NCBI GenBank assembly: GCA_049438185.1
Contig: JBMTJI010000005.1
Span: forward strand, 2,316 to 66,315
Direction of reading: 5' to 3'
Source of the DNA: Candidatus Poseidoniaceae archaeon
GTDB lineage: Archaea > Thermoplasmatota > Poseidoniia > Poseidoniales > Poseidoniaceae
Length of the DNA: 64,000 nucleotides
The translations under genes were made by a program, and so were the position numbers. Under the pieces are notes generated by a model that saw only the letters and a program-made list of their open reading frames with translations, was not told the DNA's origin and ran no database searches. This document shows, in pieces, positions 8,080 to 23,405 of the stretch. Within the stretch, counting starts at the first letter, position 1. The number at the start of each line of letters is the position of its first letter.

Positions 8080-8489
8080 AGCATTTGTGGCCTTACCACA
8101 AAGATGCACTTGCATTGGGATTGGGTGCTTTTTTCATCTACGTTGGTATTCTTCATTTTACGGATGTTGAATGGTTCACACCGATCGTTCCTGAAGCCCT
8201 TCCACTCAGTGCAGAGTTCTGGGTCATCATCAGCGGCATACCTGAAGTTCTTTGTGGATTAGGGCTCATTCTACGACCTACTCGAGTCGTTGCTGGAAAA
8301 GCAACGGTTGTACTTCTCATCGTTCTTTATTGGGCGAACCTCAACATGTGGATCAACGATATTCCACTGAATGGAAACACGTTCCCATTGTGGGCACACA
8401 TTCTTCGAGCCTTTGCACAACTCGGTATGATCGCTGTAGCAGCGTATCTCAGTGATTGGATTCCAGAACTGAAATTGGGGGATGACTAA
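8076..8489 (+). CDS. Small integral membrane protein (about 4 TM, DoxX-like topology), function unknown
   Basis: ATGA overlap with the DRG stop codon. Four hydrophobic segments. Confidence 0.5.
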   Translation: MKHLWPYHKDALALGLGAFFIYVGILHFTDVEWFTPIVPEALPLSAEFWVIISGIPEVLCGLGLILRPTRVVAGKATVVLLIVLYWANLNMWINDIPLNGNTFPLWAHILRAFAQLGMIAVAAYLSDWIPELKLGDD

Positions 8490-11400
8490 ACCCACTTATC
8501 GTCACCATCTTCTCCATTTCGCACACGGATGAAGGCGATGAGCAAAACCAAGACTGTAATGAGTATTCCAATTTGTACCACACCACCCGATAGCGCTGAC
8601 GACTGTTCTTCCTCATCGATTGTACCTGTGGAATCATTCGGTGAATTCGGACTTGGGTTGTTGTTGTCTATATCCAAATCGATGGTAACTGAGATGCTAC
8701 TCTCATTCAGATTACCTGAAGCATCAGCGCTCTTGACCACGATTGTGTAATCACCATTGGCATATGCTTCTGTAATGATTTCATGATTCTTCTTTGTTGC
8801 GAACGCATCCTCGTGGATGGTCGCCCCACCTATTGAGACAAGTTCTGTAGCACTCTCGGATGTGTACCACGATATTCGCACACGGCCATCATCGAGGACT
8901 TCTGCATCCAAATTCAATAACTCAGGAGCGGTTTCATCGATGACATTGCTGGTGTTGAAGTAAAGAACAACATCGGCTGTATCGTTTGCACGAATGAACA
9001 CCCAATACGAAGTTCCAACCTCAAGATCGGTTAGGGTCACAGCGTGGTCGGTTCCTGAATCCGTTTCAAAAAGATTCGTTGTTTCATCAACTGGTTGTTG
9101 ATCTGCCAATACGTATTGAATCGAAGTCACATCGGAAACAGTGGTCGACCAAGTAAGAACTGCGCTGGAAGAGGTGACGGTTTCAACAGAGGCTCCAAAG
9201 ATTTGTTGTGGAATCTCTGGCATTTCAAAACCGGTTAGGGTCGCATAGATGTGCCCATCTACATCGTAGGATGACAACATTTGTTCTTGTCCTGTTCCCT
9301 CTAGAATCATGTCAATGATGTTTGGATCGTAATCAATTCCATCATCTGCAGCAGGATTTGATCCTCCACCAAGAGTCCATGTTGAAGGTGTCTCATCCAC
9401 ATCTCTCCATTTTCCTGTACCGAAACCATCCTGACTTCCAATCACGATGATGTATCGGTAGTTGGGGATGTCATCACCAATGACGTCTTTGCTGATCGTG
9501 AATGTGATGGTTTTCGCATCAATGTCTCCCGACACATCAATACCGCGAGAGGACGTACTCCCTGTCTCGGATTGGACTGCGAAGACTGCACCAGGTTCCC
9601 CTGTACCACTGATGGCAACTTCCCATGCCCATGCACTATCGATACGGGCATTCGCCCCATCAAGCATCGCTGTTGAGCCATAGGTCGTCTCGCCCTGATC
9701 GACGTAAATTTGGACGATCTGATGGCTAAATCCGTTGCTCAGACCCCAGATATCGGTCATCTCATCCATCTCAATAATGAATTGAGCATTCCAAGCGCTT
9801 TGGCGAATGGTCAGTTTCTTCGCATCCCACAAACCTCCATTGTTGGGCGTGGCGAAATCAGAAGCAAGTGGATAGATGTAATCACCGTCTCCGGTTTCAT
9901 CACCAATCGCATCATCGAGTTCAAGCAAGGTCACCCACTCCTCAAGATCTGGAAGGACGACTTCTGCAGGTGCAGGTGGCGCCATTTCTTTGTCCTCTCC
10001 GTCACCATAAGCGAGCGAGTCTGCGAGGGCTGCAACCACCTTGATTCGTGTCGAATAACGAGGTGCAAGTCCAATCTCCGACCAAGGGATGACAAACTCG
10101 TAGACATCTTGAACAGCACATCCGCCAAGTGCTGAACTACCGCTCAAAACCCATTGCTCCTGGTCTCCAGTCTTCCCTTTTGCAGTGAAAAGATTCCATT
10201 TGGCACGACCATCGTCCCGTAGCGTATCGAAATCGAATGCGACCATGTATTTTGAAGGGAAACTCAGAATCTGATTGCCATAGTAGGTACGGAAATTTGT
10301 TTCTGCTTCATTGAAATTCACAGCATTTGGTTGCATGAAATAGAGTGCTAAGTCAGGGGATTTTCCACCGAGTGACATGTTCTCAAGTTCGGTAATTGTT
10401 GTGGCATCCACTCGCACAAAAACATTCGACGCATCGTAGCCGACATAGAATTCCTCGATGTTAAATGGGGCTCCTTCGACTGGTGCATCATAGCGAGCTG
10501 CACCATCCCATTCACCCGGTAATGCGACACCGTCAACCATCGGTTCAATGATCGAAGAGGCTGCTGGCGAAGGTACTGCAGGGTTTGTCCATAGATCTTG
10601 CAAATATGGAGGAAGATCGAGATTGACCGCTCGATAAATATTGGAGAGATGAACCTTAAAGAGAACGTCCCAGTTCTCGTCGTAACCGCTGTCTTGATCA
10701 AGACCATACCACCAGAACCAATCACTACCCTCGGCAATGTACAACGATTCCCAAGCGGCTTCGAGACCTGGATCGTTTGGATTCTCTTCCTCGAAGGCTA
10801 CGAGTTGTTGTCGTGCCTCTACCAGCCGTTGCCACGCAAGGGATTCCTCTTCTTCACCAGCCCATGTACGAAGTGTTCCATCAATCCATGACCCTGTTCC
10901 AATGGTTTGAATCACTGGCAACGTCGGTTCGGATTCAAGGAATTCAGAAGGCGTCGTTGTTACAATTGTGGGGTGGGTTGCCAAACGACTGTACCACTCC
11001 GCCATGAAGGGGCGAGCGTTATCCTGGTGCTGGAATTCAGACATGAACATCCAATTCTCGCCGTCGAGTGCAACAGTGAGAAGATGCTCCGATGGGTCTT
11101 CGCCCGCATCGAGAAGCTGTTGCCGTATGTTATCGAGATATGCAATAAAATCTGAAACTGCAGCCTCTGGAGTCATCGTTCCGTATTGGAAAGCAATGCG
11201 GTCAGAGATGACACGATCACGGAAAATGACGGCAACTTCACCGCCATCCGCTCCAGTGACCTTCCATGGTGTTGCAAGGTTTGTAACATCCTCAACGTCG
11301 ATGTAGTCTCCGTTTTGATTGGTGGATTGTTTGAGAATCTCTTCATCCGTTACCATCCATTCAATTCCTACATCCGTGACGGGTTGAACCATGGCTGGAG

Positions 11401-12955
11401 AGACGGCTTCTTCACTCGGCCACATTCCTGTTGGCCGGAATCCAAGTTCATCCTCGAACAAATCCATACCGGTAATCAGATGGTTTTGAACATCCTCTGG
11501 CCAAGCTTCCTTGTTCACGCGAATACCGTCTTCCATTGTCCATCCTTCCATCATCAACAACGGCATAATGGGGTGGTAATATGGTGTGGTTGTGAGTTCA
11601 ATTTGTCCGTTTGCAGCAAGTTCACTGTACATAGGCAAAACGTTCCCCATGTGGGCGTGTTGAGCATCAAGCACGTAGTTCAAATCAGCAAGTTCGTAGT
11701 TCCCATTTTGCATGAACAAATCGATGAGCCCTTGATCACGGTGGCTTGAATTGTATGAGCCAAGGACGTAATCTGGTGAGAATTGATAAAGATACCAAAG
11801 AACCTGCAAGTCGAGGAAATCCTGTGGAGGAAGCAAGTCATCGTCCATGATGGTTGCTGGTTTGAGGTTGTGAAGCGTGTTGTCGTAGAGTTCTTTGTAG
11901 CGTGCACTCGAAGGATGGAGCCATCCAAGTTTCGGGTCGTCTACAGACACATTGTAAATCCAGCCACTGTTCCAAAACGACTGGAATTGCATCGTGTGGA
12001 GTTCAAGATCGGTTGCGTTCGGATATCCTCCCGTCGCCCAAGAGCGTTTGGCGATGTCCGTATGCACGTCAAGTGTTTCTTGTTCGTGATAGTCCACGAG
12101 TTGTTCAATAAATGATGGCACAAGGTTGTACGTCACCTTCGTATCCGTATCTGCAAGGATTCCAGGCGAATCCACGTATTCGGTCATTGCATGGACTCGA
12201 ACCCAAGGCATCTCGTACATGCCAGTGAGTTTATTCTTGTAATACGGCTGATGTTGATGGAAAACGATGGCGAGATTGAGAGCATCATCCACTTTACCCG
12301 CTGCCGCTGGTTGAATCACTGGAAGTTGGTTTGGAGAGGTCGCATTGTTGACGTTCTCGATGTGCCATGCATGGGTGAACGTTTCGGCTCCGTTGTTGCT
12401 TGCCGGATTCTGTTGTGGAAACGATGCCCAAACATTCCCTTCGTCTTGCCATTGAGCATACACAACGACGTCCAACGAGGTTGGAGAGCCGAGTTCAGAC
12501 CACGGTAGAGCAAACTCTGTCACCATATTACCTTCCCATCCCGCATAGAGTTCGACAACATGAGCGCTGTCAACCCATGCACTTCCATCATAGGATACGA
12601 GTCGGAAGTAGGTGTCATCCTCGAGAACAAATCCGTAATCTGCAGCGAATGGAAGGGTGTGGGAAAAGCCCCAATCCTTACTCAACACAGAACCTTGTGT
12701 TGAGGTGTTAAAGTAAATGAAGAGATCTGCTCCTTCTGAGGTTGATTTCCAATCGGTACCATCCCAGCCGATGTAAAGGTTGGATGCATCCCACGTCAAG
12801 TGCAAATCAACGTTGGTGCTCGACATCAACTCATCCGGATTCCAATCCGATAAATCACCATCAACAGTGATTGTTGTAGGCGTTTGTGAAAGAGCGAAAC
12901 CACCCATTGTTGATGTAATGAAAAGCAGGGACAATATTACAGCACTTCTCCGCAT
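8486..12955 (-). CDS. Surface-anchored GH57-family alpha-glucan hydrolase (amylopullulanase-like), about 1489 aa, with C-terminal beta-sandwich domains and TM anchor
   Basis: All five GH57 regions are present: HQHQPYY, GQIEL, WPSEE, ALDGENW, GSDWFWWYG. N-terminus MRRSAVILSLLFITSTMGGFALSQ is a signal peptide. C-terminus VVQIGILITVLVLLIAFIRVRNGEDGDD is a TM anchor. Track start 12994 is TTG. ATG at 12955 is preferred. Confidence 0.8.
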   Translation of the reverse strand: MRRSAVILSLLFITSTMGGFALSQTPTTITVDGDLSDWNPDELMSSTNVDLHLTWDASNLYIGWDGTDWKSTSEGADLFIYFNTSTQGSVLSKDWGFSHTLPFAADYGFVLEDDTYFRLVSYDGSAWVDSAHVVELYAGWEGNMVTEFALPWSELGSPTSLDVVVYAQWQDEGNVWASFPQQNPASNNGAETFTHAWHIENVNNATSPNQLPVIQPAAAGKVDDALNLAIVFHQHQPYYKNKLTGMYEMPWVRVHAMTEYVDSPGILADTDTKVTYNLVPSFIEQLVDYHEQETLDVHTDIAKRSWATGGYPNATDLELHTMQFQSFWNSGWIYNVSVDDPKLGWLHPSSARYKELYDNTLHNLKPATIMDDDLLPPQDFLDLQVLWYLYQFSPDYVLGSYNSSHRDQGLIDLFMQNGNYELADLNYVLDAQHAHMGNVLPMYSELAANGQIELTTTPYYHPIMPLLMMEGWTMEDGIRVNKEAWPEDVQNHLITGMDLFEDELGFRPTGMWPSEEAVSPAMVQPVTDVGIEWMVTDEEILKQSTNQNGDYIDVEDVTNLATPWKVTGADGGEVAVIFRDRVISDRIAFQYGTMTPEAAVSDFIAYLDNIRQQLLDAGEDPSEHLLTVALDGENWMFMSEFQHQDNARPFMAEWYSRLATHPTIVTTTPSEFLESEPTLPVIQTIGTGSWIDGTLRTWAGEEEESLAWQRLVEARQQLVAFEEENPNDPGLEAAWESLYIAEGSDWFWWYGLDQDSGYDENWDVLFKVHLSNIYRAVNLDLPPYLQDLWTNPAVPSPAASSIIEPMVDGVALPGEWDGAARYDAPVEGAPFNIEEFYVGYDASNVFVRVDATTITELENMSLGGKSPDLALYFMQPNAVNFNEAETNFRTYYGNQILSFPSKYMVAFDFDTLRDDGRAKWNLFTAKGKTGDQEQWVLSGSSALGGCAVQDVYEFVIPWSEIGLAPRYSTRIKVVAALADSLAYGDGEDKEMAPPAPAEVVLPDLEEWVTLLELDDAIGDETGDGDYIYPLASDFATPNNGGLWDAKKLTIRQSAWNAQFIIEMDEMTDIWGLSNGFSHQIVQIYVDQGETTYGSTAMLDGANARIDSAWAWEVAISGTGEPGAVFAVQSETGSTSSRGIDVSGDIDAKTITFTISKDVIGDDIPNYRYIIVIGSQDGFGTGKWRDVDETPSTWTLGGGSNPAADDGIDYDPNIIDMILEGTGQEQMLSSYDVDGHIYATLTGFEMPEIPQQIFGASVETVTSSSAVLTWSTTVSDVTSIQYVLADQQPVDETTNLFETDSGTDHAVTLTDLEVGTSYWVFIRANDTADVVLYFNTSNVIDETAPELLNLDAEVLDDGRVRISWYTSESATELVSIGGATIHEDAFATKKNHEIITEAYANGDYTIVVKSADASGNLNESSISVTIDLDIDNNNPSPNSPNDSTGTIDEEEQSSALSGGVVQIGILITVLVLLIAFIRVRNGEDGDDKWV

Positions 12956-12965
12956 TGCATAACCG

Positions 12966-12972
12966 TATAAAT
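12966..12972. promoter_or_regulatory. AT-rich TATAAAT element in the 46-nt divergent region between the GH57 and GH77 genes
   Basis: Divergent starts are at 12955 and 13002. TATAAAT lies about 30-36 nt upstream of the + gene ATG. Confidence 0.25.
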
Positions 12973-13001
12973 GATAATTTGAAAGGCTTTGCAAAGGACT
13001 G

Positions 13002-14255
13002 ATGGAGTCTCGACACGAAAGTGGAATCCTCTGTCATCTGACATCATTACCAGAACAAAAGTTATCAGAAGGCTATCGTTTTGTCGACTGGCTTCATCAA
13101 AACGGATTTTCCTATTGGCAAATGCTGCCCCTTACACCTCCTGACAAATATCGTTCGCCATATGCCTCACCATCGGCCTTTGCAGGATGGACGGATCTCA
13201 CGGACTCGAATCAGGAACATCAAATGGAGGAAGATGCGTATTGGTTGAACGATTGGGCGTTGTTTTGCGCCATCAAAGAAGACCAAGATGGCAAGCCTTG
13301 GTACGAGTGGCCAGACCCTCTCAAGAACCGACATCCTGAGGCGTTGGCTGCGTTTGCGGGCTCGATTGAACCCTTCATTGCAAAACAACAAACGTTCACA
13401 GCAGAGTGGACGGCACTAAGATTCTATGCGAACAAGAATGGTATCAAAATGATCGGCGATGTTCCAATCTTTATCGCTCACGACTCAGCTGATGTTTGGG
13501 CGCATCGCGATTTATTCCAACTCGATGAGGAGGGCTACCCCACATACATTGCTGGCGTTCCACCAGATTACTTTAGCGAAACTGGACAAGTCTGGGAAAC
13601 GGTTCTTTACAACTGGGATGCGCATGAACAGGAAGATTGGAGATGGTGGGAAGAACGCATGAAGCGAATGTTTCGCATGTACGATGTCGTACGTATTGAT
13701 CATTTCCGTGGGTTTCATTCCAATTGGGCCATACCTTACCCCGAAGAGACAGCAACGAACGGTCATTGGCAAGATGGCCCTGGAGACATGTTGTTTGACC
13801 ATATCATGTCACTGGTCTCATCTCCAGACCAAATCATCGCGGAAGATCTGGGCATCATTCCAGAAGCGGTCATTGAATTCAGGCAACGTCACAACCTACG
13901 TGGCATGAGTGTTCTTCAATTCGGATTTTCGGACGAAATTGAAACAAACCCACATCACCCACAAAACATCAGAGAAGACCAGATTGTCTACACCGGCACA
14001 CACGACAACAACACTGCGGAGGGATGGTTCGTTTCTGCGACGAATGAGGAGCAGAAAGAGGTACGTTCACTTGCAATTCCGGGCGAAACCGTTTCCCAGA
14101 CTTTGATTCGCTTAGCACAATCAACACAGTCACCAATTTCCATCATTCCTCTCCAAGATTACCTTGGTTTAGGCGCGGAAGCACGAATGAATGTTCCCGG
14201 TCAAAAAGGTAGGAATTGGTCATGGAAATTTACTTGGCAGGAACTTGTCGGCTGA
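13002..14255 (+). CDS. malQ: 4-alpha-glucanotransferase (amylomaltase, GH77)
   Basis: N-terminus SGILCHLTSLPE matches the G(I/V)LLHxTSLP start. Catalytic motif VRIDHFRGF is present. The C-terminal NVPGQKGRNWSWKF motif fits GH77. At 417 aa it is shorter than typical MalQ. Confidence 0.75.
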   Translation: MESRHESGILCHLTSLPEQKLSEGYRFVDWLHQNGFSYWQMLPLTPPDKYRSPYASPSAFAGWTDLTDSNQEHQMEEDAYWLNDWALFCAIKEDQDGKPWYEWPDPLKNRHPEALAAFAGSIEPFIAKQQTFTAEWTALRFYANKNGIKMIGDVPIFIAHDSADVWAHRDLFQLDEEGYPTYIAGVPPDYFSETGQVWETVLYNWDAHEQEDWRWWEERMKRMFRMYDVVRIDHFRGFHSNWAIPYPEETATNGHWQDGPGDMLFDHIMSLVSSPDQIIAEDLGIIPEAVIEFRQRHNLRGMSVLQFGFSDEIETNPHHPQNIREDQIVYTGTHDNNTAEGWFVSATNEEQKEVRSLAIPGETVSQTLIRLAQSTQSPISIIPLQDYLGLGAEARMNVPGQKGRNWSWKFTWQELVG

Positions 14256-14300: not shown

Positions 14301-15950
14301 ATGTCTGTGGTGGGGTATTTCACAGCCGAGATTGGCCTTTGGTCAGACCTTCACACGTATTCTGGTGGATTAGGGGTTCTCGCTGGAGATCACGTCAAAT
14401 CCGCTGCTGATGCTGGCGTCCCACTTGTCGGAGTTACGCTTCTGTATCATCAAGGCTATGCTCGTCAGCACATTGATGGAGATGGAGTCCAAACAGAGAC
14501 GTTCCCAGAATTTGATCCTGGCCATCACCTAACGAAAACCGACATTACCATCAAACTCCAATTGGATGACCAAACCCTTCTCGCACATGTTTGGAAAACA
14601 GAGATTACTGGTCAGAGCGGCCACATCGTTCCAGTCTATTTTATCGATACACGTCATGAATCAAATTCACCAGAGCATCAACGACTCTCTTCACGACTTT
14701 ACGGAGGTGGGGATGAAGTACGAATCCGCCAAGAATACGTTCTCGGTGTTGGAGGTGTCCAATTGTTCGATTACCTCGATGTGGAACTTCGAGGACTGCA
14801 TCTTAACGAAGGCCACTGCACCTTTGCCATGCTCGAATTGTTGAATCGTGGATGGAGCAGAGAAGAATTGGCACAACGAAGCCTGTTCACAACGCACACC
14901 CCCGTTCCTGCAGGTCATGACCGATTTGAGTGGTCTTTGGTAAGGCAGGTTGTTGGTAAGATTCTGCCAGATGATGCTCAAGACCTGGTCAGGAGCGCTG
15001 GTGATTCTGAACAAGGTGCTCGATGTTCGATGTCACATCTCGCAGTGGCTCTTTCAACATCGGTCAACGCTGTTTCTAAGCTCAATGCTGAGGTTGCGAT
15101 GACCATGTTCGAAGAACAACTGATTCAACCAATCACCAATGGAGTCCATCACATCACTTGGACATCCCCTGTCATGTCATCCCTCTTTGATGAGCATATG
15201 GCTGGATGGAGAATTCAGCCTGAATCCATCTCAAATGCTGATGCATTGCCAACGAAAGATCTCAATGACGCACGTGCAAAGACTCGAAAACAACTCCATG
15301 ATTACGTCAAATCAACAACCGGGGTCGAATTATTCTCAGACCGATTAACCATCGGTTTTGCACGCCGATTTGCAACCTACAAACGAGCAAACTTGGTCTT
15401 CAAAGATTTGCAACGACTTCGGGCAATTGGTGCAGGAAAGATTCAATTCGTTTTCTCTGGAAAAGCACATCCAAGAGACAAAGGTGGCAAACAATTGATT
15501 CGTGACATCTTTGAATCTGCACATCAAATCGCCGACGAAATCCCAGTTGCGTTCATCGAGAATTACGACATGCATACCGGATTGATGATGACCAGTGGCG
15601 TAGACATTTGGCTGAACAATCCGATTCGTCCTATGGAAGCATCGGGTACGTCGGGTATGAAGGCTGCAATGAATGGTGTTCCAAACTGTTCGATCCTCGA
15701 CGGATGGTGGCCTGAGGCTTGCATTCATGGTGTGAATGGATGGGCGATTGGGAATGCGGAAGATGACCGTAATGATGACAGAGATGCAGAAAACATCTAC
15801 AACGTACTGGAACATGATGTTCTCCCTTTGTGGGAACGAGAAGACAATGGTTGGTCGGATATGATGAAAGCAAGCATCGTAGCATCAGCTGGATTTACTG
15901 GTCAGAGAATGATTCAAGATTATCTTGAATTCTACGATCAATTCTCTTGA
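14301..15950 (+). CDS. Alpha-glucan (maltodextrin/glycogen) phosphorylase, GT35, short archaeal/bacterial type
   Basis: SGGLGVLAGDH motif and the pyridoxal-phosphate Lys region EASGTSGMKAAMNGV. Length 549 aa. Confidence 0.85.
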   Translation: MSVVGYFTAEIGLWSDLHTYSGGLGVLAGDHVKSAADAGVPLVGVTLLYHQGYARQHIDGDGVQTETFPEFDPGHHLTKTDITIKLQLDDQTLLAHVWKTEITGQSGHIVPVYFIDTRHESNSPEHQRLSSRLYGGGDEVRIRQEYVLGVGGVQLFDYLDVELRGLHLNEGHCTFAMLELLNRGWSREELAQRSLFTTHTPVPAGHDRFEWSLVRQVVGKILPDDAQDLVRSAGDSEQGARCSMSHLAVALSTSVNAVSKLNAEVAMTMFEEQLIQPITNGVHHITWTSPVMSSLFDEHMAGWRIQPESISNADALPTKDLNDARAKTRKQLHDYVKSTTGVELFSDRLTIGFARRFATYKRANLVFKDLQRLRAIGAGKIQFVFSGKAHPRDKGGKQLIRDIFESAHQIADEIPVAFIENYDMHTGLMMTSGVDIWLNNPIRPMEASGTSGMKAAMNGVPNCSILDGWWPEACIHGVNGWAIGNAEDDRNDDRDAENIYNVLEHDVLPLWEREDNGWSDMMKASIVASAGFTGQRMIQDYLEFYDQFS

Positions 15951-18691
15951 TCGTCCCAATTGATTTCAACCGATTCATCCACTTGCAATCCCTTCTTTCT
16001 TCCAGTTAAACCAAGGAAGAGGGCTGCGAGGATTACGGCTCCAATTAACAAAGATCGTGTTATCGTGTGCGTTGAAGATTTGGAATCAGAGATTCCTTCT
16101 GAGTCACATGGAGCACAATTGACCATTGGACATGGTTCATCAGCTGCAACCTCGAATACATTCCCACAACACCCTTCGCACGTTTTCATTTCATTCGAAG
16201 TCGATGAATGCCCATCCGTCTCATTGCTCGGATTTGGCAATTGAGTTTCATTGGTTGAACTTGTTTGGTTCGTCGATTCATTGGTTTGAGTTGTGGTGTT
16301 TGTTTGGTTGTTTCCGCTCGGCTCCTGACAACTTGGGCAACATTCCCCTTCCTCTGCTGGCACTGTTATCCAACCAGCAGGACACGCATCACAGAGTACA
16401 TCGGCGCATGGGTCAACAGGATCGGTCTCATACTGACAACTTCCATCGTCTTGGGTTGCCTCAACGTCAAAGTTCGTTGCAGTGTTATCCATACAGCCAA
16501 AGATTGGTACAGGAGGGTATTCACATGACCCATCATCTTCAGTAGCGGATGGGTCAAAGTTTGTTGCTGATGAGTCCGTACAGCCGTAATCAGGAATCTC
16601 GACGACATCAGCATCAAGTTCGATTACGGTCACGGAATGTGCCCCTACGGAGAGTGTACCATCGAGCATTGATGAGTCACCAAAACGAACGACATCGTTG
16701 TTGGCAAAACCAGCAACCGTCGTCGGAGCACCACGATTGAGAACGATGGACATGACCTGATCATCGTGCGTCATGTTGTAAACGAGAAGATTCGACATTG
16801 CCAGTCGTGTGCTGTATTCGCCACGTTGTAATGCAATCGATTCTGATCGTAATTTACCAAGTTCTGAGATGTTCTCAAACAATTCAGATTCCATGGTACT
16901 CCACGAACTCTCATTTCGGTACATGTGACGATTATCGGGGTCTGCTCCTCCGTATTCGCCATATTCATCCCCGTAGTAAAGCAGTGGAGCACCCGGCGTG
17001 GTCAAGAGCCATCCATAAGCCTGCAGAGCAGCATTGTAAGCGGACGCATCACCAGGCTGACCAGGAAGACCGTCCTCAACCCATTGATTGAACGCATCAT
17101 TGGTTCCACTATCTGCTCGACTGGTCAATCGAGGCACATCGTGACTACCAACATAGGGCACCATGATGGAACCGTCGAGGTATTGATCTTGACTTCGGTT
17201 AGTCCAATAATCAAGATGCATGTAGTTCTCATTGCCAGAAACGAAGACGTTGTCAACAACTGCATGATAGAGCACAAAGTCAGCTTGTCCATCCAATCCA
17301 TCCGGACCCATGTACGCGTTGATGGTTCCATATTGTTCCTGATTGTCTATGAGTGAGTGACCCGCCCAACCCATGGCTGTCTCGCCTTTGAGATAGTAAT
17401 CGGTTCCAACCGTCTCAAAGCGTTCATTGACTTGAGCAACCAAGTTTCTTGTTGCTAAATCTTCAACATGCTTGACAGCATCAATACGAAGACCATCGAG
17501 ATCGTAGGTTTCCAACCACCACAAAGCATCATCAATGAATTGCTCAGAAGCATCTCGAATCTTCCAATTGACATCGGGCATGTAGGACGTAAATTGGCAA
17601 TCCAAACGGTGCTCGGTCCAGTCGCAGTTGGAAGTCCCACAGATACAACCCGCATTGAACCATTCAGGATTGTCTTGATAGTATGTGTGCTGTTCATGAA
17701 CGTGGTTCACGACAAAATCCATCATGACGCGAATGTCGTGGCCATGGGCTGCTTCAATCAATGCATGAAGTTCTTCTTCGGTACCCAACTTCGGTTCAAT
17801 TCCTCTTGGTTCCGTTGGCCAGTAACCATGGAAGGCAGAAACATCATGGATCCCATCTGCGGCTTTGCCCGTTCCATTCGCTGCCGTATTGAACGGAGAA
17901 AGCCAGAGCGCTCCGACCCCTAACTCATCAAAATAGCCAGATTCAATCATTTGGGTGACGCCTGCAAAGTCGCCACCTTGCCAATCAGCCCCTTGTGCTG
18001 CACCAACCATGGGCCCATCGTTTGATGTATTGCCATTGACGAATCGATCGGTCATGACCATGTAGATGAGCGCGTCTTGCCATTCAAAATCAGCAGATGG
18101 GCCAGTCCAGAACGGGACGAGTAAGTCGTATGCTGGATTACCATCGACATCGAATCCATCGATTTTGAGCGTATGCTTACCATCATCCAATCCACTCACA
18201 TCAAAAGTCCAAGTGAGGAGTTGCGAATCCCAGACAGCACCAGAAAGAGCAGAAGGGGTTCCACTGAAGGCAGCTCCTGAAGAACCGGGATGATACGTTA
18301 CAACGAGGGATTGAGCAACGAGTTCAGCACTGAAATGAGGGCGAGTGTGATCACGAACACGGACAAGTGAATTTTCGATATCGCCACAATACGAACGTTC
18401 TGGATTCATCGGGTCGAAGAGATACTGGCCATCAACAATGAACTTGTAACAATACAGACCTTCTTGCAATTCAATCTCAGCAGTCCAAACACCGTTTTGT
18501 TCAACCATGGGAACAGGATCGCTCCAGTTCCATTCACCAACCACGGCTACTTCTGTTGCAAAAGCCTTGAACGAAAATGAAGTCATGGTTGTCGAAGTAG
18601 GATGGGATGATGCTTGCACATCGTTGGAAGAGAGAGGTGAGAACACGACGAGAACCATCAATAGGATCAAACATCGAGCAATATTTTTCAT
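15938..18691 (-). CDS. Secreted, membrane-anchored GH13 alpha-amylase/pullulanase-family enzyme with N-terminal CBM48-like domain and Cys-rich C-terminal modules
   Basis: Signal peptide MKNIARCLILLMVLVVFSPLS. CBM48-like WNWSD...GLYCYKFIVDGQYLFDP. GH13 regions DFVVNH, GLRIDAVKHV, KGETAMGW, VGSHDVP. C-terminal TM LLIGAVILAALFLGLTGRKKG. Its ATG overlaps the upstream ABC ATPase stop (ATGA). Confidence 0.85.
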   Translation of the reverse strand: MKNIARCLILLMVLVVFSPLSSNDVQASSHPTSTTMTSFSFKAFATEVAVVGEWNWSDPVPMVEQNGVWTAEIELQEGLYCYKFIVDGQYLFDPMNPERSYCGDIENSLVRVRDHTRPHFSAELVAQSLVVTYHPGSSGAAFSGTPSALSGAVWDSQLLTWTFDVSGLDDGKHTLKIDGFDVDGNPAYDLLVPFWTGPSADFEWQDALIYMVMTDRFVNGNTSNDGPMVGAAQGADWQGGDFAGVTQMIESGYFDELGVGALWLSPFNTAANGTGKAADGIHDVSAFHGYWPTEPRGIEPKLGTEEELHALIEAAHGHDIRVMMDFVVNHVHEQHTYYQDNPEWFNAGCICGTSNCDWTEHRLDCQFTSYMPDVNWKIRDASEQFIDDALWWLETYDLDGLRIDAVKHVEDLATRNLVAQVNERFETVGTDYYLKGETAMGWAGHSLIDNQEQYGTINAYMGPDGLDGQADFVLYHAVVDNVFVSGNENYMHLDYWTNRSQDQYLDGSIMVPYVGSHDVPRLTSRADSGTNDAFNQWVEDGLPGQPGDASAYNAALQAYGWLLTTPGAPLLYYGDEYGEYGGADPDNRHMYRNESSWSTMESELFENISELGKLRSESIALQRGEYSTRLAMSNLLVYNMTHDDQVMSIVLNRGAPTTVAGFANNDVVRFGDSSMLDGTLSVGAHSVTVIELDADVVEIPDYGCTDSSATNFDPSATEDDGSCEYPPVPIFGCMDNTATNFDVEATQDDGSCQYETDPVDPCADVLCDACPAGWITVPAEEGECCPSCQEPSGNNQTNTTTQTNESTNQTSSTNETQLPNPSNETDGHSSTSNEMKTCEGCCGNVFEVAADEPCPMVNCAPCDSEGISDSKSSTHTITRSLLIGAVILAALFLGLTGRKKGLQVDESVEINWDDQEN
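16427..16591 (-). repeat. Tandem Cys-containing approximately 25-aa module x2 (DYGCTDSSATNFDPSATEDDGSCEY / IFGCMDNTATNFDVEATQDDGSCQY) inside the GH13 gene
   Basis: Read from the translation at aa 701-755. It is followed by a further Cys-rich stretch and a Thr/Asn/Ser-rich linker, through about 16106. Confidence 0.55.
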
Positions 18692-19482
18692 TCCTCACCC
18701 TCCATATCTTCTGGCTGCTTAAACAATGAATTCGCCGTATCGACCAAATCATCGATGTGTTTGCACAAGAATGAACGTACGAAATCATTGGCAGGGTTGT
18801 GGTAAGCTTCCAACGGCGCACAATGTTGTTGCAATTCACCCTTTTCGAGGATTGCAATTCGATCAGCAAGCGTCATTGCTTCGATTTGATCGTGGGTTAC
18901 ATAGATCGTTGTAGTACCAAGTTCGTCGTGCAGACGTCGAATCTCTTGTCGCATTTGATGCCGTAACTCTGCGTCCAAATTTGAGAGAGGTTCGTCCATG
19001 AGGAGAACCTTCGGTCGTCGTACCAATGCTCGTCCAAGCGCAACTCTCTGACGCTGACCTCCACTGAGTTCCTTCGGTTTCTTCCCAAGATGTTCACTGA
19101 GTTCAAGGAGGGTTGAAATCTCATCGACACGGGACGATATTTCATCCTCAGGCAACTTGTTTTCTCCTTTCATCATCCTTAGCCCGAAGGAGAGATTGTC
19201 GCGAATCGACATGTGAGGATACAATGCATAGGATTGGAACACCATACCCAAACCTCGAGCGCCAGCGGGGAGATGATTGACTTTCATTCCATCGATAAGG
19301 ATACTACCCCCTGTCACTTCTTCCAGGCCTGCAAGCATTCGAAGTGTGGTTGACTTACCACAACCTGATGGTCCCAAGAGAACCAAGAATTCCTTGTCCT
19401 TGATGTCAAGATTCAGATTTCTGACAGCATGAAATCCGTCATCGTATCGCTTGTTTACTTCTTCAAATTGTACGTTCACCAT
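18688..19482 (-). CDS. ABC transporter ATP-binding protein (MalK/UgpC-like, without C-terminal regulatory domain)
   Basis: Walker A GPSGCGKST, signature LSGGQRQR, Walker B LLMDEPLSNLD. Track start 19503 is GTG. ATG at 19482 (MVNVQFEEVNKRY) is preferred. Confidence 0.8.
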   Translation of the reverse strand: MVNVQFEEVNKRYDDGFHAVRNLNLDIKDKEFLVLLGPSGCGKSTTLRMLAGLEEVTGGSILIDGMKVNHLPAGARGLGMVFQSYALYPHMSIRDNLSFGLRMMKGENKLPEDEISSRVDEISTLLELSEHLGKKPKELSGGQRQRVALGRALVRRPKVLLMDEPLSNLDAELRHQMRQEIRRLHDELGTTTIYVTHDQIEAMTLADRIAILEKGELQQHCAPLEAYHNPANDFVRSFLCKHIDDLVDTANSLFKQPEDMEGEE

Positions 19483-19486
19483 GTTC

Positions 19487-20734
19487 TCACCCTTTGACGC
19501 CACCTGCGGATAATCCGTCGATCAAAAATTTCTGGAAGAAGAGGAAGAGCAAGGCCACTGGCAGACTGACCAACAGACTTGCGGCCGCAAAATCACCCCA
19601 CGCTTGTCCTGTTGAAGAGATAAGTGAAGCCAATCCAACTGGGAGCGTGTACATGTCGTTTGATGTGTTGAAGGTTAGCGCCAATAAGAATTCATTCCAA
19701 GCAGCCAAGAAACTGAACAGTGCCGTCACAGCGATTGCGGGCGTGGACAACGGTAGGACGACTCTGGTGAACACTTGGAATTGGTTGCATCCATCAAGAG
19801 CAGCAGCCTCTTCAAGTTCTCGTGGTATAGTGTCGAAGAATCCTTTCAACATCCAAACACAGAGAGGTAATGCTGTAACACAATAGGCTAGAATGAGCCC
19901 TAAATGTGAGTTGAGCAAACCGAGGGTCTTCATCACCAAGAAATATGGAACGAGAATAATCACGCCAGGGAACATCTGCACGAGAAGGAACGAGAACATC
20001 GAAACATCACGTCCAGTAAACTTGTAGCGACTAAATGCATATCCAGCAGGAATAGCGATAAACAATCCAAGCAGGGCCGTTCCGATACTCACAATCAGGG
20101 AATTCGTTAACCATGTCCAGAACGAATCACCGTTGAGAATTTTTGAGAAGTGTTCTGTGGTGAATGAATCACCGATTTGTCCGCCGAGAGCATTTCCTTC
20201 CGAGAAGGCAATATCAACAATCCAGATCAAAGGAATGACGGTAATGGCAACAAAGTGAAGGAGCGTAAGGTGAGTGGATGTAGCATGGAATATCTTGCTT
20301 AGATTTGCATTTCGCATCAAACCGTATTCGATCGCAGAATCCGATAGTTTCCTTGACGTCCATACCGTAACAGGCCGCCCCGATAACCAATACAAGGTCA
20401 AGCCTGACGGCAGGATGCTCCAACAATGGATCCAGATGTTGAAAACCGTCACTTCAATGCGTAAGAGTCGATAAACGCCAATTCCAAGCAACATTGCACT
20501 CAGCACCAAGCAACTGTTTCGACGCAGGTGATCGTTGACATTGGGAAGGGATGCGCGAAGCGCTGCAAACAAAGCACAAGTGAGTATTCCAAGGAGAAGC
20601 AGATCGGACTCCGCACGGAGATAATCCACTGTGAGGAGAAGGACGTTGATGAGGAAAGCTGCGACAAGCCAACGTCTCAACATGACGATTTCAATAGGCA
20701 CATACCACCAACGCATGTCCTCTGAATTGGTCAT
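19487..20734 (-). CDS. Carbohydrate ABC transporter permease (MalG-like) with N-terminal extension
   Basis: Contains the permease EAA-loop region EEAAALDGCNQFQVFTRVVLP. An ATG at 20734 gives an ATGA overlap with the upstream fusion gene stop. The track start 20815 would overlap it by 85 nt. Confidence 0.7.
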   Translation of the reverse strand: MTNSEDMRWWYVPIEIVMLRRWLVAAFLINVLLLTVDYLRAESDLLLLGILTCALFAALRASLPNVNDHLRRNSCLVLSAMLLGIGVYRLLRIEVTVFNIWIHCWSILPSGLTLYWLSGRPVTVWTSRKLSDSAIEYGLMRNANLSKIFHATSTHLTLLHFVAITVIPLIWIVDIAFSEGNALGGQIGDSFTTEHFSKILNGDSFWTWLTNSLIVSIGTALLGLFIAIPAGYAFSRYKFTGRDVSMFSFLLVQMFPGVIILVPYFLVMKTLGLLNSHLGLILAYCVTALPLCVWMLKGFFDTIPRELEEAAALDGCNQFQVFTRVVLPLSTPAIAVTALFSFLAAWNEFLLALTFNTSNDMYTLPVGLASLISSTGQAWGDFAAASLLVSLPVALLFLFFQKFLIDGLSAGGVKG

Positions 20735-23352
20735 CGCACCGCCTCCGTAGCATTGGTTTGTTTCATGTATCGCCAAGAGAAGGCAAACAACATCATGAAG
20801 ATGATGACCGACCAAGCGGCAGCCACTCCGTAAGCGCCTTCTCTAAAGGCTACATCATACACATATGTGATCAAAATATCCGTTTGACCAGGCTCACCAA
20901 AGTAGAGATTTGGGCCTCCATCGGTCATCAAATAAATCACGTTGAACATGTTGAACGTCCAAATGAAACCGAGAAGCGTCAGAGGAATCAATGCACTGCG
21001 TAAATTTGGAAGTGTAAGATGCCGGAATGCAGTCCACCCCATGATTCCATCAATTTCAGCAGCTTCGTACATGTTCTTCGGAAGCGATTGTAATGCACCA
21101 CTAATGGACATCATCATGAAGGGAACGCCAAGCCAAATGTTGACAAGAATCACAATAATTTGAGCACCCGTTGGGTCGGAGAGGAAATCGATGTTGGTAC
21201 CCAAGAGATCGTTTACGAATCCATCAGGTTGGAACATCCCTCTCCATACGAGAACCGAGATGTACGAAGGAACAGCCCATGGCAGCAACAACAGTGTGCG
21301 GTACGCCATCTTCCCTTGAATTCGACTGCGATGCAAGAGGATCGCTAGGAAGAGTCCGATACCGATGTGCGCGGATACGTTGACGAAAGTCCAAACGAGT
21401 GTAAACAAGGTCACTCGCAGGAACCCATCAGAGGAAAACACCTCCCAGAAATTGTCCAAACCAATGAACGATTGATCCCCAAGTTGTGTCTGATTTGCAT
21501 CCGTAAAGGCAAGCCAGAACCCGTACAAGACGGGATAAAACGTGAGGATGGCTAAGGCAAGTAAAGCAGGTGCGACGTAGAAATGGGCAAGTTTGGAATT
21601 TGTTCGGCCAAGCCTTGTATCATTCCATTTTGCAAAACTCAACAAGGCGATTAAGGAGAGAACAATTGCACCAAGTGCGAACATGACTGGCGATGTATTG
21701 CCTGCTTGTGGTCGTTCATCGGCTACAGCTGTGCTTCCAGTTGTCGAATAGATCAGCACGCTGTCTGCAAAAACTTCGATTCGATGTTCTTGTTCAGGCA
21801 CCATGCCTGTAAGGTCGCATTGAATCAATTCTGTCGTTTGTGAAATGATTCGAACCTGTCCTTGTTGAAGCAACTCATCGAATCCATCAGTGCATGTATC
21901 GTACCCGAGAATTGTGCCATTGTTTGTAGATTCAAGTCGAATCTGGGTGTGCAAGGCTCCATCAACAAGGATGTCGTACAACGTGGCATTGGTCATCTGA
22001 AATTCGAGTGAAATTGTACGATATCCTTCTGTTAGGGGGTACGGTTCAGCACGAGAAATTGAATCCATTTGCTCCTGAAGTTGTTGGTTGGCACCTGACA
22101 ATGCTTCCTCAGTGGTGGCAATCTCCGAGTAAGCCTGTTCAAAGGCAGTTGACAGTGGGTCATAGACCAGCGACATCGCCCGAGTTGTTGGAGCCGGTGT
22201 TCCTTCTTTGGTTTGCTCGAGGAAACCTGAAAGCACCTCGTCTTCAGTGATTTCAGCATCGAACTCCAAAGCAACATGTGTTGGCATTGTGTACGTGTCA
22301 ACAGCGAATTCTTTCTGAACAGCCTCGGAAGAGAGCCATAGTGCAAGTTCGGTCGCTGCAACCTTGTTGGCACTTTGCTTGCTAACAGTCCAACCTTTGT
22401 AGGTTACAAGCGGTGACATTCGTTCTCCTGAGGTTTCAACCAGCGGCAACAAGGTTTGACCGATGTTTAAGCGACTTGCCTCATACGTAGCCCAATTCCA
22501 CGGGCCATCGAAAATCATCGCAGCTTTCGAGGAGATGAATTGGTTTTTCATGCCTTCAATCTGTGTCCCTGTAGCGACGACACCATGCTCCAACTCCAAA
22601 TCAAGCATCCATCGCATGGCTTCACTGGAACCGTTGGAGTTGAGGGTTGGTTCACCGTTTTCATCAAAAAGTGAGCCGCCGAATCCTTCCTGTATTGGGA
22701 ACCACCAATACGCAGTCTTGATTGGAATTGCAAGTCCTTGCACATCTTGGTAGGTCAATGATTCAGCGGCCTGGAGCAAATCTTGTTCCGTCCAAGTTTC
22801 ATCTGGATAAGCAAGACCTTGTGCATCAAACAATGCTTTGTTAAAGATTAACGAAAGACAATCTTGGCTTGCAGGTACGCCATACAACGAATCACCATAC
22901 CGCATGGCTTGCAATGCTCGCTCTTCGAACTGCGCCCTATCTTGTGGTGTAAGATGAGGACGTAGATCCTCCAGGAGTGGGAAGCCATCAACTCGAACCT
23001 CTCCAATTGCACCCAGTTGATCACTCGAGAGACGCATCAAATCAGGAGCTTGTCCCCCTTGAGCAGCCGTCATGAACAGTTGGTCTGCATTTCCAAATGG
23101 AACCATTGTCACATCAACGGTTATGTTTGGATGTGAAGATTCAAACGAATTGATTGCGTTCATGAACACTTCTTCTTCCTTACTTTCAGCCGCAAATGTA
23201 TGCCAAACCTCAAGTTCAATGATTCCATTTGAAGCGTTTTCTTCCAAATCTTGCTGGCTATTACCAAGGCAACCTGATAAGAAAATCATCGAAAAAAGGA
23301 CAATTGCAAGAAGTCGCTTCCGAGTGGAAGAACCCAGCATCATGCCCTTCAT
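20731..23352 (-). CDS. Fusion protein: lipoprotein-type carbohydrate substrate-binding protein (MalE-like) fused to ABC permease (MalF-like), 873 aa
   Basis: Signal/lipobox MKGMMLGSSTRKRLLAIVLFSMIFLSGCLG. The SBP domain runs to about aa 420. A roughly 130-aa middle domain is followed by a TM helix and a six-TM permease core with EAA-like region EAAEIDGIMGWTAFRHLTLP. It is a single uninterrupted ORF. Confidence 0.75.
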   Translation of the reverse strand: MKGMMLGSSTRKRLLAIVLFSMIFLSGCLGNSQQDLEENASNGIIELEVWHTFAAESKEEEVFMNAINSFESSHPNITVDVTMVPFGNADQLFMTAAQGGQAPDLMRLSSDQLGAIGEVRVDGFPLLEDLRPHLTPQDRAQFEERALQAMRYGDSLYGVPASQDCLSLIFNKALFDAQGLAYPDETWTEQDLLQAAESLTYQDVQGLAIPIKTAYWWFPIQEGFGGSLFDENGEPTLNSNGSSEAMRWMLDLELEHGVVATGTQIEGMKNQFISSKAAMIFDGPWNWATYEASRLNIGQTLLPLVETSGERMSPLVTYKGWTVSKQSANKVAATELALWLSSEAVQKEFAVDTYTMPTHVALEFDAEITEDEVLSGFLEQTKEGTPAPTTRAMSLVYDPLSTAFEQAYSEIATTEEALSGANQQLQEQMDSISRAEPYPLTEGYRTISLEFQMTNATLYDILVDGALHTQIRLESTNNGTILGYDTCTDGFDELLQQGQVRIISQTTELIQCDLTGMVPEQEHRIEVFADSVLIYSTTGSTAVADERPQAGNTSPVMFALGAIVLSLIALLSFAKWNDTRLGRTNSKLAHFYVAPALLALAILTFYPVLYGFWLAFTDANQTQLGDQSFIGLDNFWEVFSSDGFLRVTLFTLVWTFVNVSAHIGIGLFLAILLHRSRIQGKMAYRTLLLLPWAVPSYISVLVWRGMFQPDGFVNDLLGTNIDFLSDPTGAQIIVILVNIWLGVPFMMMSISGALQSLPKNMYEAAEIDGIMGWTAFRHLTLPNLRSALIPLTLLGFIWTFNMFNVIYLMTDGGPNLYFGEPGQTDILITYVYDVAFREGAYGVAAAWSVIIFMMLFAFSWRYMKQTNATEAVR

Positions 23353-23375
23353 GTTTCGGCCTTGAATTACGCCAA

Positions 23376-23381
23376 CTTAAA
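23376..23381 (-). promoter_or_regulatory. TATA-like TTTAAG element about 26 nt upstream of the malEF-like ATG (minus strand), in the 53-nt gap after truA
   Basis: Minus-strand reading is gtttaagttggcgtaattcaaggccgaaac followed by ATG. It is the only non-coding space upstream of the four-gene transporter/amylase operon. Confidence 0.25.
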
Positions 23382-23405
23382 CAGCACGGAGATGCATTGA
23401 TGCGT

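Follow-up and report, generated by a model that had tools for sequence, protein, structure and literature searches.

The window analysed here is a stretch of 64,000 nucleotides (nt) of contig JBMTJI010000005.1 (GenBank assembly GCA_049438185.1) from a Candidatus Poseidoniaceae archaeon. On its minus strand, a substrate-binding protein (SBP) of the MalE type and an ATP-binding cassette (ABC) permease of the MalF type are encoded by one gene, whose features are given below with the evidence in brackets.

20731..23352, minus strand: fused gene, 873 codons plus stop (list of open reading frames (ORFs), Pfam, AlphaFold2 model, one-frame conservation in 80/80 related loci)
23269..23352, minus strand: signal peptide with lipobox, residues 1-28, ending in MIFLSGC, Cys28 being the predicted lipidation site (hydropathy, sequence)
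22063..23220, minus strand: MalE/cyclo-maltodextrin-type substrate-binding domain, residues ~45-430 (Pfam, PDB sequence matches, Foldseek)
22018..22062, minus strand: fusion junction and linker, residues 431-445, where QMD is followed by SISRAEPYPLTEG (MAFFT alignment against the concatenated split pair of locus L081, described below; predicted local distance difference test (pLDDT) 66-76)
21730..22017, minus strand: all-beta immunoglobulin/fibronectin type III (Ig/FN3)-like ectodomain, residues 446-541, with C487, C512 and the motif C-x-LTGM-x-P-x3-H-x-IEV
21610..21693, minus strand: extra transmembrane (TM) helix TM0, residues 554-581, followed by the basic loop KWNDTRLGRTNSK (hydropathy, AlphaFold2 helix 554-581)
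20755..21588, minus strand: MalF-type six-TM core, residues 589-866 (Pfam, E. coli MalF alignment, NCBIfam, AlphaFold2)
21007..21066, minus strand: EAA loop and coupling helix, residues 763-782, EAAEIDGIMGWTAFRHLTLP (motif search, AlphaFold2 helix 759-767)

In the ORF list, the gene is a single ATG-to-stop frame of 873 amino acids (aa); by our own arithmetic, a stop-free run of 873 codons would arise by chance with a probability of (61/64)^873, or approximately 1e-18. The protein is composed, in order, of the lipobox signal, the MalE-type domain, the Ig/FN3-like ectodomain, the extra TM helix and the six-TM MalF-type core. Pfam places SBP_bac_1 at residues 61-347 (E 1.3e-25; 91.5 bits against a cut-off of 26), SBP_bac_8 at residues 66-371 (E 3.3e-21; 76.8 bits against 27) and BPD_transp_1 (PF00528) at residues 663-858 (E 5.3e-14; 52.8 bits against a gathering score of 26.4). 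The full-length AlphaFold2 model, built from 139 diverse homologues, has a pLDDT of 92 and a predicted template modelling score (pTM) of 0.88. The four cysteines of the protein are at positions 28, 165, 487 and 512, and the middle domain holds only C487 and C512. A first-pass annotation, made from the letters of the window, had described an uninterrupted 873-aa frame at 20731-23352 with an FLSGC lipobox signal, a MalE-like SBP, a Cys-containing middle domain of roughly 130 aa, a TM helix and a six-TM permease with an EAA loop. The frame is borne out by the ORF list and by 80/80 related loci, the lipobox at Cys28 by hydropathy and sequence, the succession of SBP and permease in one chain by Pfam, the PDB match 2r6g_F, NCBIfam and Foldseek, and the TM helix, the core and the EAA loop by hydropathy, AlphaFold2 and motif search. 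The cysteines of the middle domain are likewise present; its size has to be corrected to approximately 95 residues plus two linkers of approximately 13 residues each.

The fused frame is widely conserved. In a cluster search of 5.8 billion proteins, the SBP and the permease Pfam domains occur together in more than 100 clusters of 79-97% identity among the 120 best listed. These clusters have the same length, save a few that are truncated, and derive from assemblies of ENA, JGI, NCBI, Tara and Logan. Few of these clusters bear an organism name at all, and those that do are assigned to Poseidoniaceae, Euryarchaeota or Thermoplasmatota; in public records their names go no further than "extracellular solute-binding protein", "MalF" or "hypothetical". 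A scan with one genome per species detected a relative in 228 genomes, and the locus analysis was carried out on the best 80 of these 228 (61-97% identity). One stop-free frame runs over the fusion in all 80 loci, 77 of which are full length, and the remaining three are cut by contig ends alone. The labels of these 80 loci are nearly all Poseidoniales or a broader archaeal rank, and four have bacterial bin names. In three loci (L002, L007 and L070), the fused gene is found at 66-90% identity in metagenome-assembled genomes (MAGs) titled Salipiger bermudensis, Rhodobiaceae bacterium and Verrucomicrobiales bacterium; these are most likely mis-binned Poseidoniales contigs. Over 78 aligned orthologues, the binding domain has a mean identity of 0.80 to the protein of the window and the permease one of 0.85; TM0 reaches 0.75 and the middle domain 0.46. 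The first-pass annotation had considered a frameshift unlikely and had called for a search for orthologous fusions. Such fusions are found, and there is no stop or frameshift at the junction in 80 independent species genomes; the orthologues are thus not uniformly split, though one Poseidoniales lineage has the two genes apart. We consider it very likely that adjacent malE and malF genes have truly fused in Poseidoniaceae, that selection maintains the fusion, and that the fused gene encodes the receptor-plus-transmembrane-domain subunit of a type I MalEFGK2-like importer of alpha-glucan oligosaccharides.

By comparing the fusion with its split relatives, the fusion event can be placed precisely. 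Scanning 1.84 billion cluster representatives with HMMER recovered stand-alone SBPs of approximately 420-434 aa (for example P0126, 54% identical to the query) and stand-alone MalF proteins of approximately 480-500 aa (for example P0125, 63% identical), the latter being composed of a signal/anchor, an ectodomain of approximately 140 residues, a TM helix and a six-TM core. Genes of the P0126 and P0125 types are adjacent, with consecutive accessions, in the Poseidoniales MAG GCA_012965105.1 (locus L081), and in this locus, as well as in the metagenome contigs L082 and L083, the SBP and MalF genes overlap by 4 nt. In these split loci, the genes after malF encode MalG (419 aa in L082 and L083), MalK (257 aa) and a large secreted protein, with GH77/phosphorylase on the opposite strand, and the gene order is identical to that of the window. 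The fusion is 52% identical to the SBP and 54% identical to the MalF of L081 (BLASTP). Once the fusion is aligned globally (MAFFT) with the L081 SBP and MalF, the junction shows a single gap of 27 residues, GMRRGIPLIVVMALVMVLLATPVVQAT, which takes in the final Gly of the SBP, the stop codon and the opening 26 residues of the MalF signal/anchor. Because GMRRGIPLIVVMALVMVLLATPVVQAT is the sole junction gap, the fusion is a clean in-frame join of the MalE C-terminus to the mature MalF N-terminus. Residues 431-445 accordingly mark the place where the fusion has lost the stop codon and the signal/anchor that MalF has in the split form. The predicted junction peptides of the fusion are QQLQEQMDSISR, or ANQQLQEQMDSISR, and AEPYPLTEGYR, and residues 431-445 contain no indels across the 78 aligned orthologues. 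A neighbour-joining tree built from permease cores places the query and the fused P0121 (64% identical) among unfused, ectodomain-bearing MalF proteins; the split arrangement would thus be ancestral and the fused one derived.

The middle domain has the same origin. Since the alignment of fused and split forms shows only the stop and the signal/anchor to be missing, this domain is MalF's own N-terminal ectodomain. In BLASTP, the middle domain of the query aligns to the ectodomain of stand-alone MalF relatives over a stretch that contains the two cysteines and the IQCDLTGM motif, and the MalF ectodomain of the L081 type keeps both cysteines and the LTGM motif. In the AlphaFold2 model, the strands of the folded domain extend over residues 447-539, and with its two linkers the region comprises approximately 120 residues in total. 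C487 and C512 are invariant (78/78 orthologues), and a disulfide between them probably stabilises the ectodomain.

In the permease half, E. coli MalF is the top PDB sequence match (2r6g_F residues 259-509 to query residues 630-866, E 8.7e-44), and the NCBIfam MalF profile is matched at 3.8e-57. The core helices are located at residues 589-614, 643-674, 681-706, 727-755, 772-800 and 841-866 (hydropathy and AlphaFold2). Between core TM4 and TM5, EAAEIDGIMGWTAFRHLTLP satisfies the EAA motif EAA-x2-DG-x9-12-[ILV]-x-LP. E. coli MalF has a large P2 loop that grips MalE. According to the MalF alignment and the AlphaFold2 model, no P2-loop insertion is present between core TM1 and TM2, where there are approximately 28 residues. 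The NCBIfam MalF equivalog (NF008232) scores 194.2 bits against a cut-off of 392 and is matched over profile positions 258-516 of 520 only; as the P2 loop and the first helices of the profile are unmatched, the protein is MalF-like but is not a MalF equivalog. The basic loop KWNDTRLGRTNSK after TM0 carries K, R, R and K. Because this loop obeys the positive-inside rule, TM0 is expected to run out-to-in and the MalF core to have its usual orientation. The predicted topology, with an N-terminal signal, one extra TM helix (an odd number) and the basic loop, fits a binding domain outside and a normal core.

At the N-terminus, the archaeal lipobox that closes the signal peptide has been described as [L/V/I] at -3, [A/S/T/V/I] at -2, [G/A/S] at -1 and C at +1 (PMC12462473). 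The L-S-G-C at Cys28 fits this motif, and Cys28 would be lipid-modified. Upstream, a conserved GTTTAAGT box is located 29 nt 5' of the fused-gene ATG among orthologues that are at least 78% identical (window 23353-23405), and more distant orthologues have TTTAAT or TTTTAT at a similar distance. This box is probably an archaeal TATA element from which a near-leaderless mRNA would be made, and its conservation at -29 nt supports the annotated start and hence the signal peptide.

For the binding half, PDB sequence matches include Thermotoga MalE2 (1.7e-27), 6ffl_A (8.3e-26) and the cyclo/maltodextrin binder 2zyk. By Foldseek, the predicted fold has TM-scores of 0.89-0.91 to 2ZYK/2ZYN and 0.88 to 6FFL, the range over maltodextrin and cyclodextrin binders being 0.84-0.91, and all top structural neighbours bind alpha-glucan-derived ligands. 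A maltodextrin-type substrate is predicted.

The genes around the fusion agree with this prediction, and their features are as follows.

19487..20734, minus strand: MalG-type permease, 415 aa, with a ~145-aa N-terminal hydrophobic extension (NCBIfam MalG, hydropathy)
18688..19482, minus strand: MalK/UgpC-type ATPase, 264 aa, ATG at 19482 (Pfam ABC_tran, NCBIfam, start codon)
15938..18691, minus strand: secreted GH13 alpha-amylase, 917 aa, with an N-terminal CBM48-like glycogen-binding module and a C-terminal anchor (Pfam, hydropathy)
14301-15950, plus strand: alpha-glucan phosphorylase (Pfam Phosphorylase 6.7e-27)
13002-14255, plus strand: GH77 4-alpha-glucanotransferase (Pfam Glyco_hydro_77 6.3e-125)
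8486..12994, minus strand: GH57 enzyme, 1502 aa, with a glucodextranase C-terminal (SLH-like) binding module (Pfam)

The start of the MalG gene overlaps the stop of the fusion as ATGA (GTGCGATGACC / GCGATGACC), an overlap that the first-pass annotation had also read here. Residues 146-415 of the MalG-type permease align to positions 8-296 of the NCBIfam MalG profile (E 5.8e-58). Its extension of approximately 145 residues has several hydrophobic segments, and the 419-aa MalG of the unfused loci has such an extension too. For the ATPase, UgpC is the top NCBIfam match (2.5e-105) and MalK the second (1.4e-97). As this 264-aa protein covers only positions 1-235 of the 369 of the MalK profile, it has no C-terminal regulatory domain. 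The GH13 gene, the final gene of the operon, is ATGA-overlapped with the ATPase gene, and throughout the operon stops and starts overlap or nearly abut. The GH13 protein matches Pfam Alpha-amylase (1.6e-38) and AMPK1_CBM (1.4e-11) and has hydrophobic segments at residues 1-27 and 874-899. The GH77 and phosphorylase genes are convergent with the operon and accompany the fused gene in approximately 50 related loci; they are predicted to process imported maltodextrin in the cytoplasm. The GH57 protein, in which weak, sub-threshold fn3 and Big_13 (Ig-like) matches are also seen, probably provides the island with a second enzyme that degrades alpha-glucan at the surface. Since the operon with MalG, MalK and GH13 adjoins the GH57, GH77 and phosphorylase genes, the locus is interpreted as an alpha-glucan uptake island.

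A separate observation concerns the GH77 and phosphorylase genes themselves, which are same-frame ORFs with one TGA and 45 nt between them. In approximately 50 Poseidoniaceae loci the two are separate, and in L081-L083, where malE and malF are split, they form one ORF, so that the fusion states of the two pairs are reciprocal.

From the sequence and the established knowledge of MalEFGK2, a mechanism of uptake may be proposed. The N-terminal Sec-type lipobox signal would carry the binding domain together with the ectodomain out of the cell, and Cys28 would receive a lipid. TM0 would then bring the chain back inside, after which the MalF core would be in the canonical N-in orientation. Consequently, one binding domain would be fixed per MalF-MalG-MalK2 complex and tethered at both ends, an arrangement that would suit a cell without a periplasm and outer membrane to hold a soluble binding protein. 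Outside the cell, alpha-glucan would be cut to maltooligosaccharides by the anchored GH13 amylase and probably also by the GH57 enzyme; the tethered domain would capture these sugars before docking on MalF/MalG, with the ectodomain serving as a rigid spacer or docking element. Finally, the MalK dimer without a regulatory domain would power import, and GH77 and the phosphorylase would yield glucose and glucose-1-phosphate in the cytoplasm.

Several points weigh against this reading, or against parts of it. The topology, the lipidation, the disulfide and the substrate of the fusion are all predictions, and the polarity from split to fused is based on a rough neighbour-joining tree and the wider spread of split forms. 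As for the N-terminus, 5 of the 78 aligned orthologues lack the lipobox Cys and keep the hydrophobic segment, and arCOG02177, a proposed lipoprotein-lipidation family, has gaps in Thermoplasmata (PMC12462473). Both points would fit an N-terminal segment that is an uncleaved, unlipidated first TM helix, in which case the protein would be an eight-TM MalF with the binding domain and the ectodomain in its first external loop. Similarly, E. coli MalF, with eight TM helices, has two extra N-terminal helices, and the core alignment begins at its residue 259. However, a lipobox [LIV]-x-G-C is found in 73 of the 78 orthologues, and the stand-alone SBP P0126 has ITIPGC; because the fusion and P0126 both carry a lipobox, lipoprotein processing would have been inherited from the free SBP. 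We therefore regard the uncleaved helix as unlikely; either way, the binding domain would be outside and doubly tethered, and the transport mechanism would be unchanged.

The substrate is open to a second objection. Among NCBIfam profiles, the binding domain matches GanS, a galactooligosaccharide binder, best (6.5e-33) and MalE less strongly (2e-28), and a JGI family name is 'arabinogalactan oligomer/maltooligosaccharide transport system permease'. In addition, the closest structural match is a cyclo/maltodextrin binder. The importer might then take up something else than alpha-1,4-glucan oligosaccharides, for example galacto- or arabinogalactan-oligosaccharides, or only cyclodextrins. None of the NCBIfam equivalog cut-offs is reached, however (MalE, 99.4 bits against 291; GanS, 114.1 bits against 700), and consequently the substrate specificity rests on the fold and the gene neighbourhood. 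These favour alpha-glucan: a GH13 enzyme with a glycogen-binding module is encoded in the operon, GH57, GH77 and phosphorylase genes flank it, this neighbourhood is conserved, and the ligands of the top structural neighbours agree. Another substrate appears improbable to us, and alpha-glucan oligosaccharides are retained as the predicted cargo.

A third possibility is that the fusion is only a biogenesis device, in which cleavage in the linker at residues 431-446 or 540-553 would free a lipid-anchored SBP acting in trans. These two linkers have the lowest model confidence and the lowest conservation in the protein, and in Bdellovibrio bacteriovorus, which has a MalE-MalF fusion, added soluble MalE still stimulated the fused transporter, according to the account of Licht et al. 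2019 given in PMC6906923. Because of this stimulation, a fusion is no proof of strictly in-cis, one-to-one operation. On the other hand, no signal-peptidase-like site remains, since the MalF signal segment is deleted, the linker length is strictly conserved without indels, and the characterised fused systems are described in reviews as working while fused (PMC3971661; PMC6906923). Such cleavage is very improbable. Finally, the idea that a frameshift or a lost stop joined malE and malF in one assembly has practically no standing left: although SBP and permease are usually separate, and are separate with a 4-nt overlap in the related lineage, the artefact is refuted by the uninterrupted frame in 80/80 independent species genomes (61-97% identity), by more than 100 clusters, by a junction free of indels in the 78 aligned orthologues, and by the missing signal segment of 27 residues, a loss that no single-base error can cause.

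Within the preferred reading of a genuine fused importer subunit, the role of the ectodomain deserves separate comment. Given that there is no P2 loop, the ectodomain would be the obvious candidate for receptor positioning. A more specific proposal, which we put forward tentatively and hold to be rather doubtful, is that the Ig/FN3-like ectodomain is an undescribed MalF accessory module replacing the P2 loop as the receptor-positioning element, and that in Poseidoniaceae it acts as a rigid arm in an importer that works strictly in-cis, has one receptor and is tethered twice, by a lipid anchor and by TM0. If this is true, the fused and unfused pair would be a natural experiment on tethering versus capture kinetics in an abundant planktonic archaeon living in dilute seawater.

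Marine Group II archaea are abundant, uncultured heterotrophs of the surface ocean, and the locus provides a concrete, conserved route for starch- or glycogen-like alpha-glucan, which would involve surface amylases, a tethered-receptor importer and cytoplasmic GH77 and phosphorylase. In the searchable literature, no published mention of a MalE-MalF fusion in Poseidoniales/Marine Group II was found. The locus contributes a case in which MalE and MalF fused independently, with the junction exactly placed and an unfused orthologue still living for comparison.

When the system is compared with E. coli MalEFGK2 (2R6G), the core is closest to MalF, its partner is closest to MalG, the ATPase is near MalK, and the EAA loop and the MalE-type receptor are shared; a type I alternating-access cycle triggered by the liganded receptor is therefore expected. 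Unlike in E. coli, the receptor is covalently attached to the permease. Moreover, in contrast to E. coli MalF, to which the alignment extends from residue 259, the permease has an N-terminal ectodomain instead of a P2 loop. E. coli MalK is regulated via its C-terminal regulatory domain, which the archaeal MalK lacks, and the archaeal MalG differs from that of E. coli by its N-terminal extension of approximately 145 aa. Another pair of known systems is OpuA, of the osmoprotectant family, and GlnPQ, of the polar amino acid family, which have homodimeric transmembrane domains and two or four binding domains per complex. In contrast to these, MalF/MalG is heterodimeric and the binding domain is on MalF alone, so there is one per complex. 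The resemblance is that OpuA and GlnPQ of Lactococcus lactis are likewise type I importers with the binding domain in the membrane subunit (PMC3971661; PMC6906923). Within Poseidoniales, the split locus L081 differs from the window in that its MalF has its own signal/anchor and its GH77 and phosphorylase are fused, whereas in the window malE and malF are fused and GH77 and phosphorylase are separate.

Fusions of this kind are not confined to the window. Among the 150 best representatives of the scan, 31 carry both domains, and approximately 25 of the 31 are distinct full-length fused clusters whose spacers are mostly of 45-60 residues; because these clusters are scattered over the permease tree, the fusion arose repeatedly. 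One of the proteins observed, P0140 (692 aa), has a MalE-like domain (59-439) inserted between core TM1 (11-43) and the remaining core (449-683). This insertion site corresponds to the position of the P2 loop in E. coli MalF and represents a different, apparently undescribed receptor integration. Five others (P0137, P0142, P0143, P0145 and P0151) are single-chain MalF-MalG fusions of 832-1127 aa, with a signal and a 170-230-residue N-terminal region before the MalF core, as in the ectodomain-bearing stand-alone MalF proteins. The MalF-MalG fusions show further fusion plasticity in this transporter clade.

The closest known counterpart is the MalE-MalF fusion of Bdellovibrio bacteriovorus, which, in the account of Licht et al. 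2019 (Res Microbiol 170:1) that PMC6906923 gives, was expressed and assayed, its MalE domain being crystallised (6FFL). Binding domains fused to transmembrane domains have been described in reviews (PMC3971661; PMC6906923). The fusion principle, MalE-MalF included, is thus already known. The first-pass annotation was right that the binding protein and the membrane domain, normally separate, are truly fused here; the novelty that it implied has to be qualified, and the archaeal protein is an independently evolved variant. As in Bdellovibrio, the binding domain is N-terminal to a MalF-type permease in one chain, giving one receptor per transporter, and the binding-domain fold is the same (TM-score 0.88, E 8.8e-24 to 6FFL by Foldseek). 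The full-length Bdellovibrio protein was represented by a near relative, P0147 (E 5.3e-115 to 6ffl_A), from which its architecture is deduced; P0156 was rejected as a proxy, as it belongs to the wrong clade and 6FFL is outside its best 60 PDB matches. Like the archaeal fusion, P0147 has a lipobox signal at its start and one extra TM helix before the core. The Bdellovibrio type differs, however, in sequence, the binding domain being only 23-25% identical and the core 39% (25% and 39% for P0147). In addition, the extra TM helix of P0147 (417-450) comes directly after the binding domain (aligned to 6FFL up to residue 412) without an ectodomain, whereas the archaeal fusion has a spacer of approximately 120 residues; the hosts also differ, one being an archaeon without a periplasm and the other a Gram-negative bacterium. 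As the query and P0147 are in separate permease clades, and the nearest relatives of the query are unfused, the two fusions arose independently. A common origin is rejected in view of the low identity, the junction architecture and the tree position, the last taken from a neighbour-joining tree of distant sequences with P0147 as proxy. The stoichiometric consequence of such a fusion has been known for years. The result therefore builds on current understanding without altering it, and its value is for evolution and annotation and as a comparative system. The archaeal protein differs from the known systems in that it has kept the MalF ectodomain as a spacer, is probably tethered twice, and has an unfused orthologue still in existence by which the fusion event can be defined exactly.

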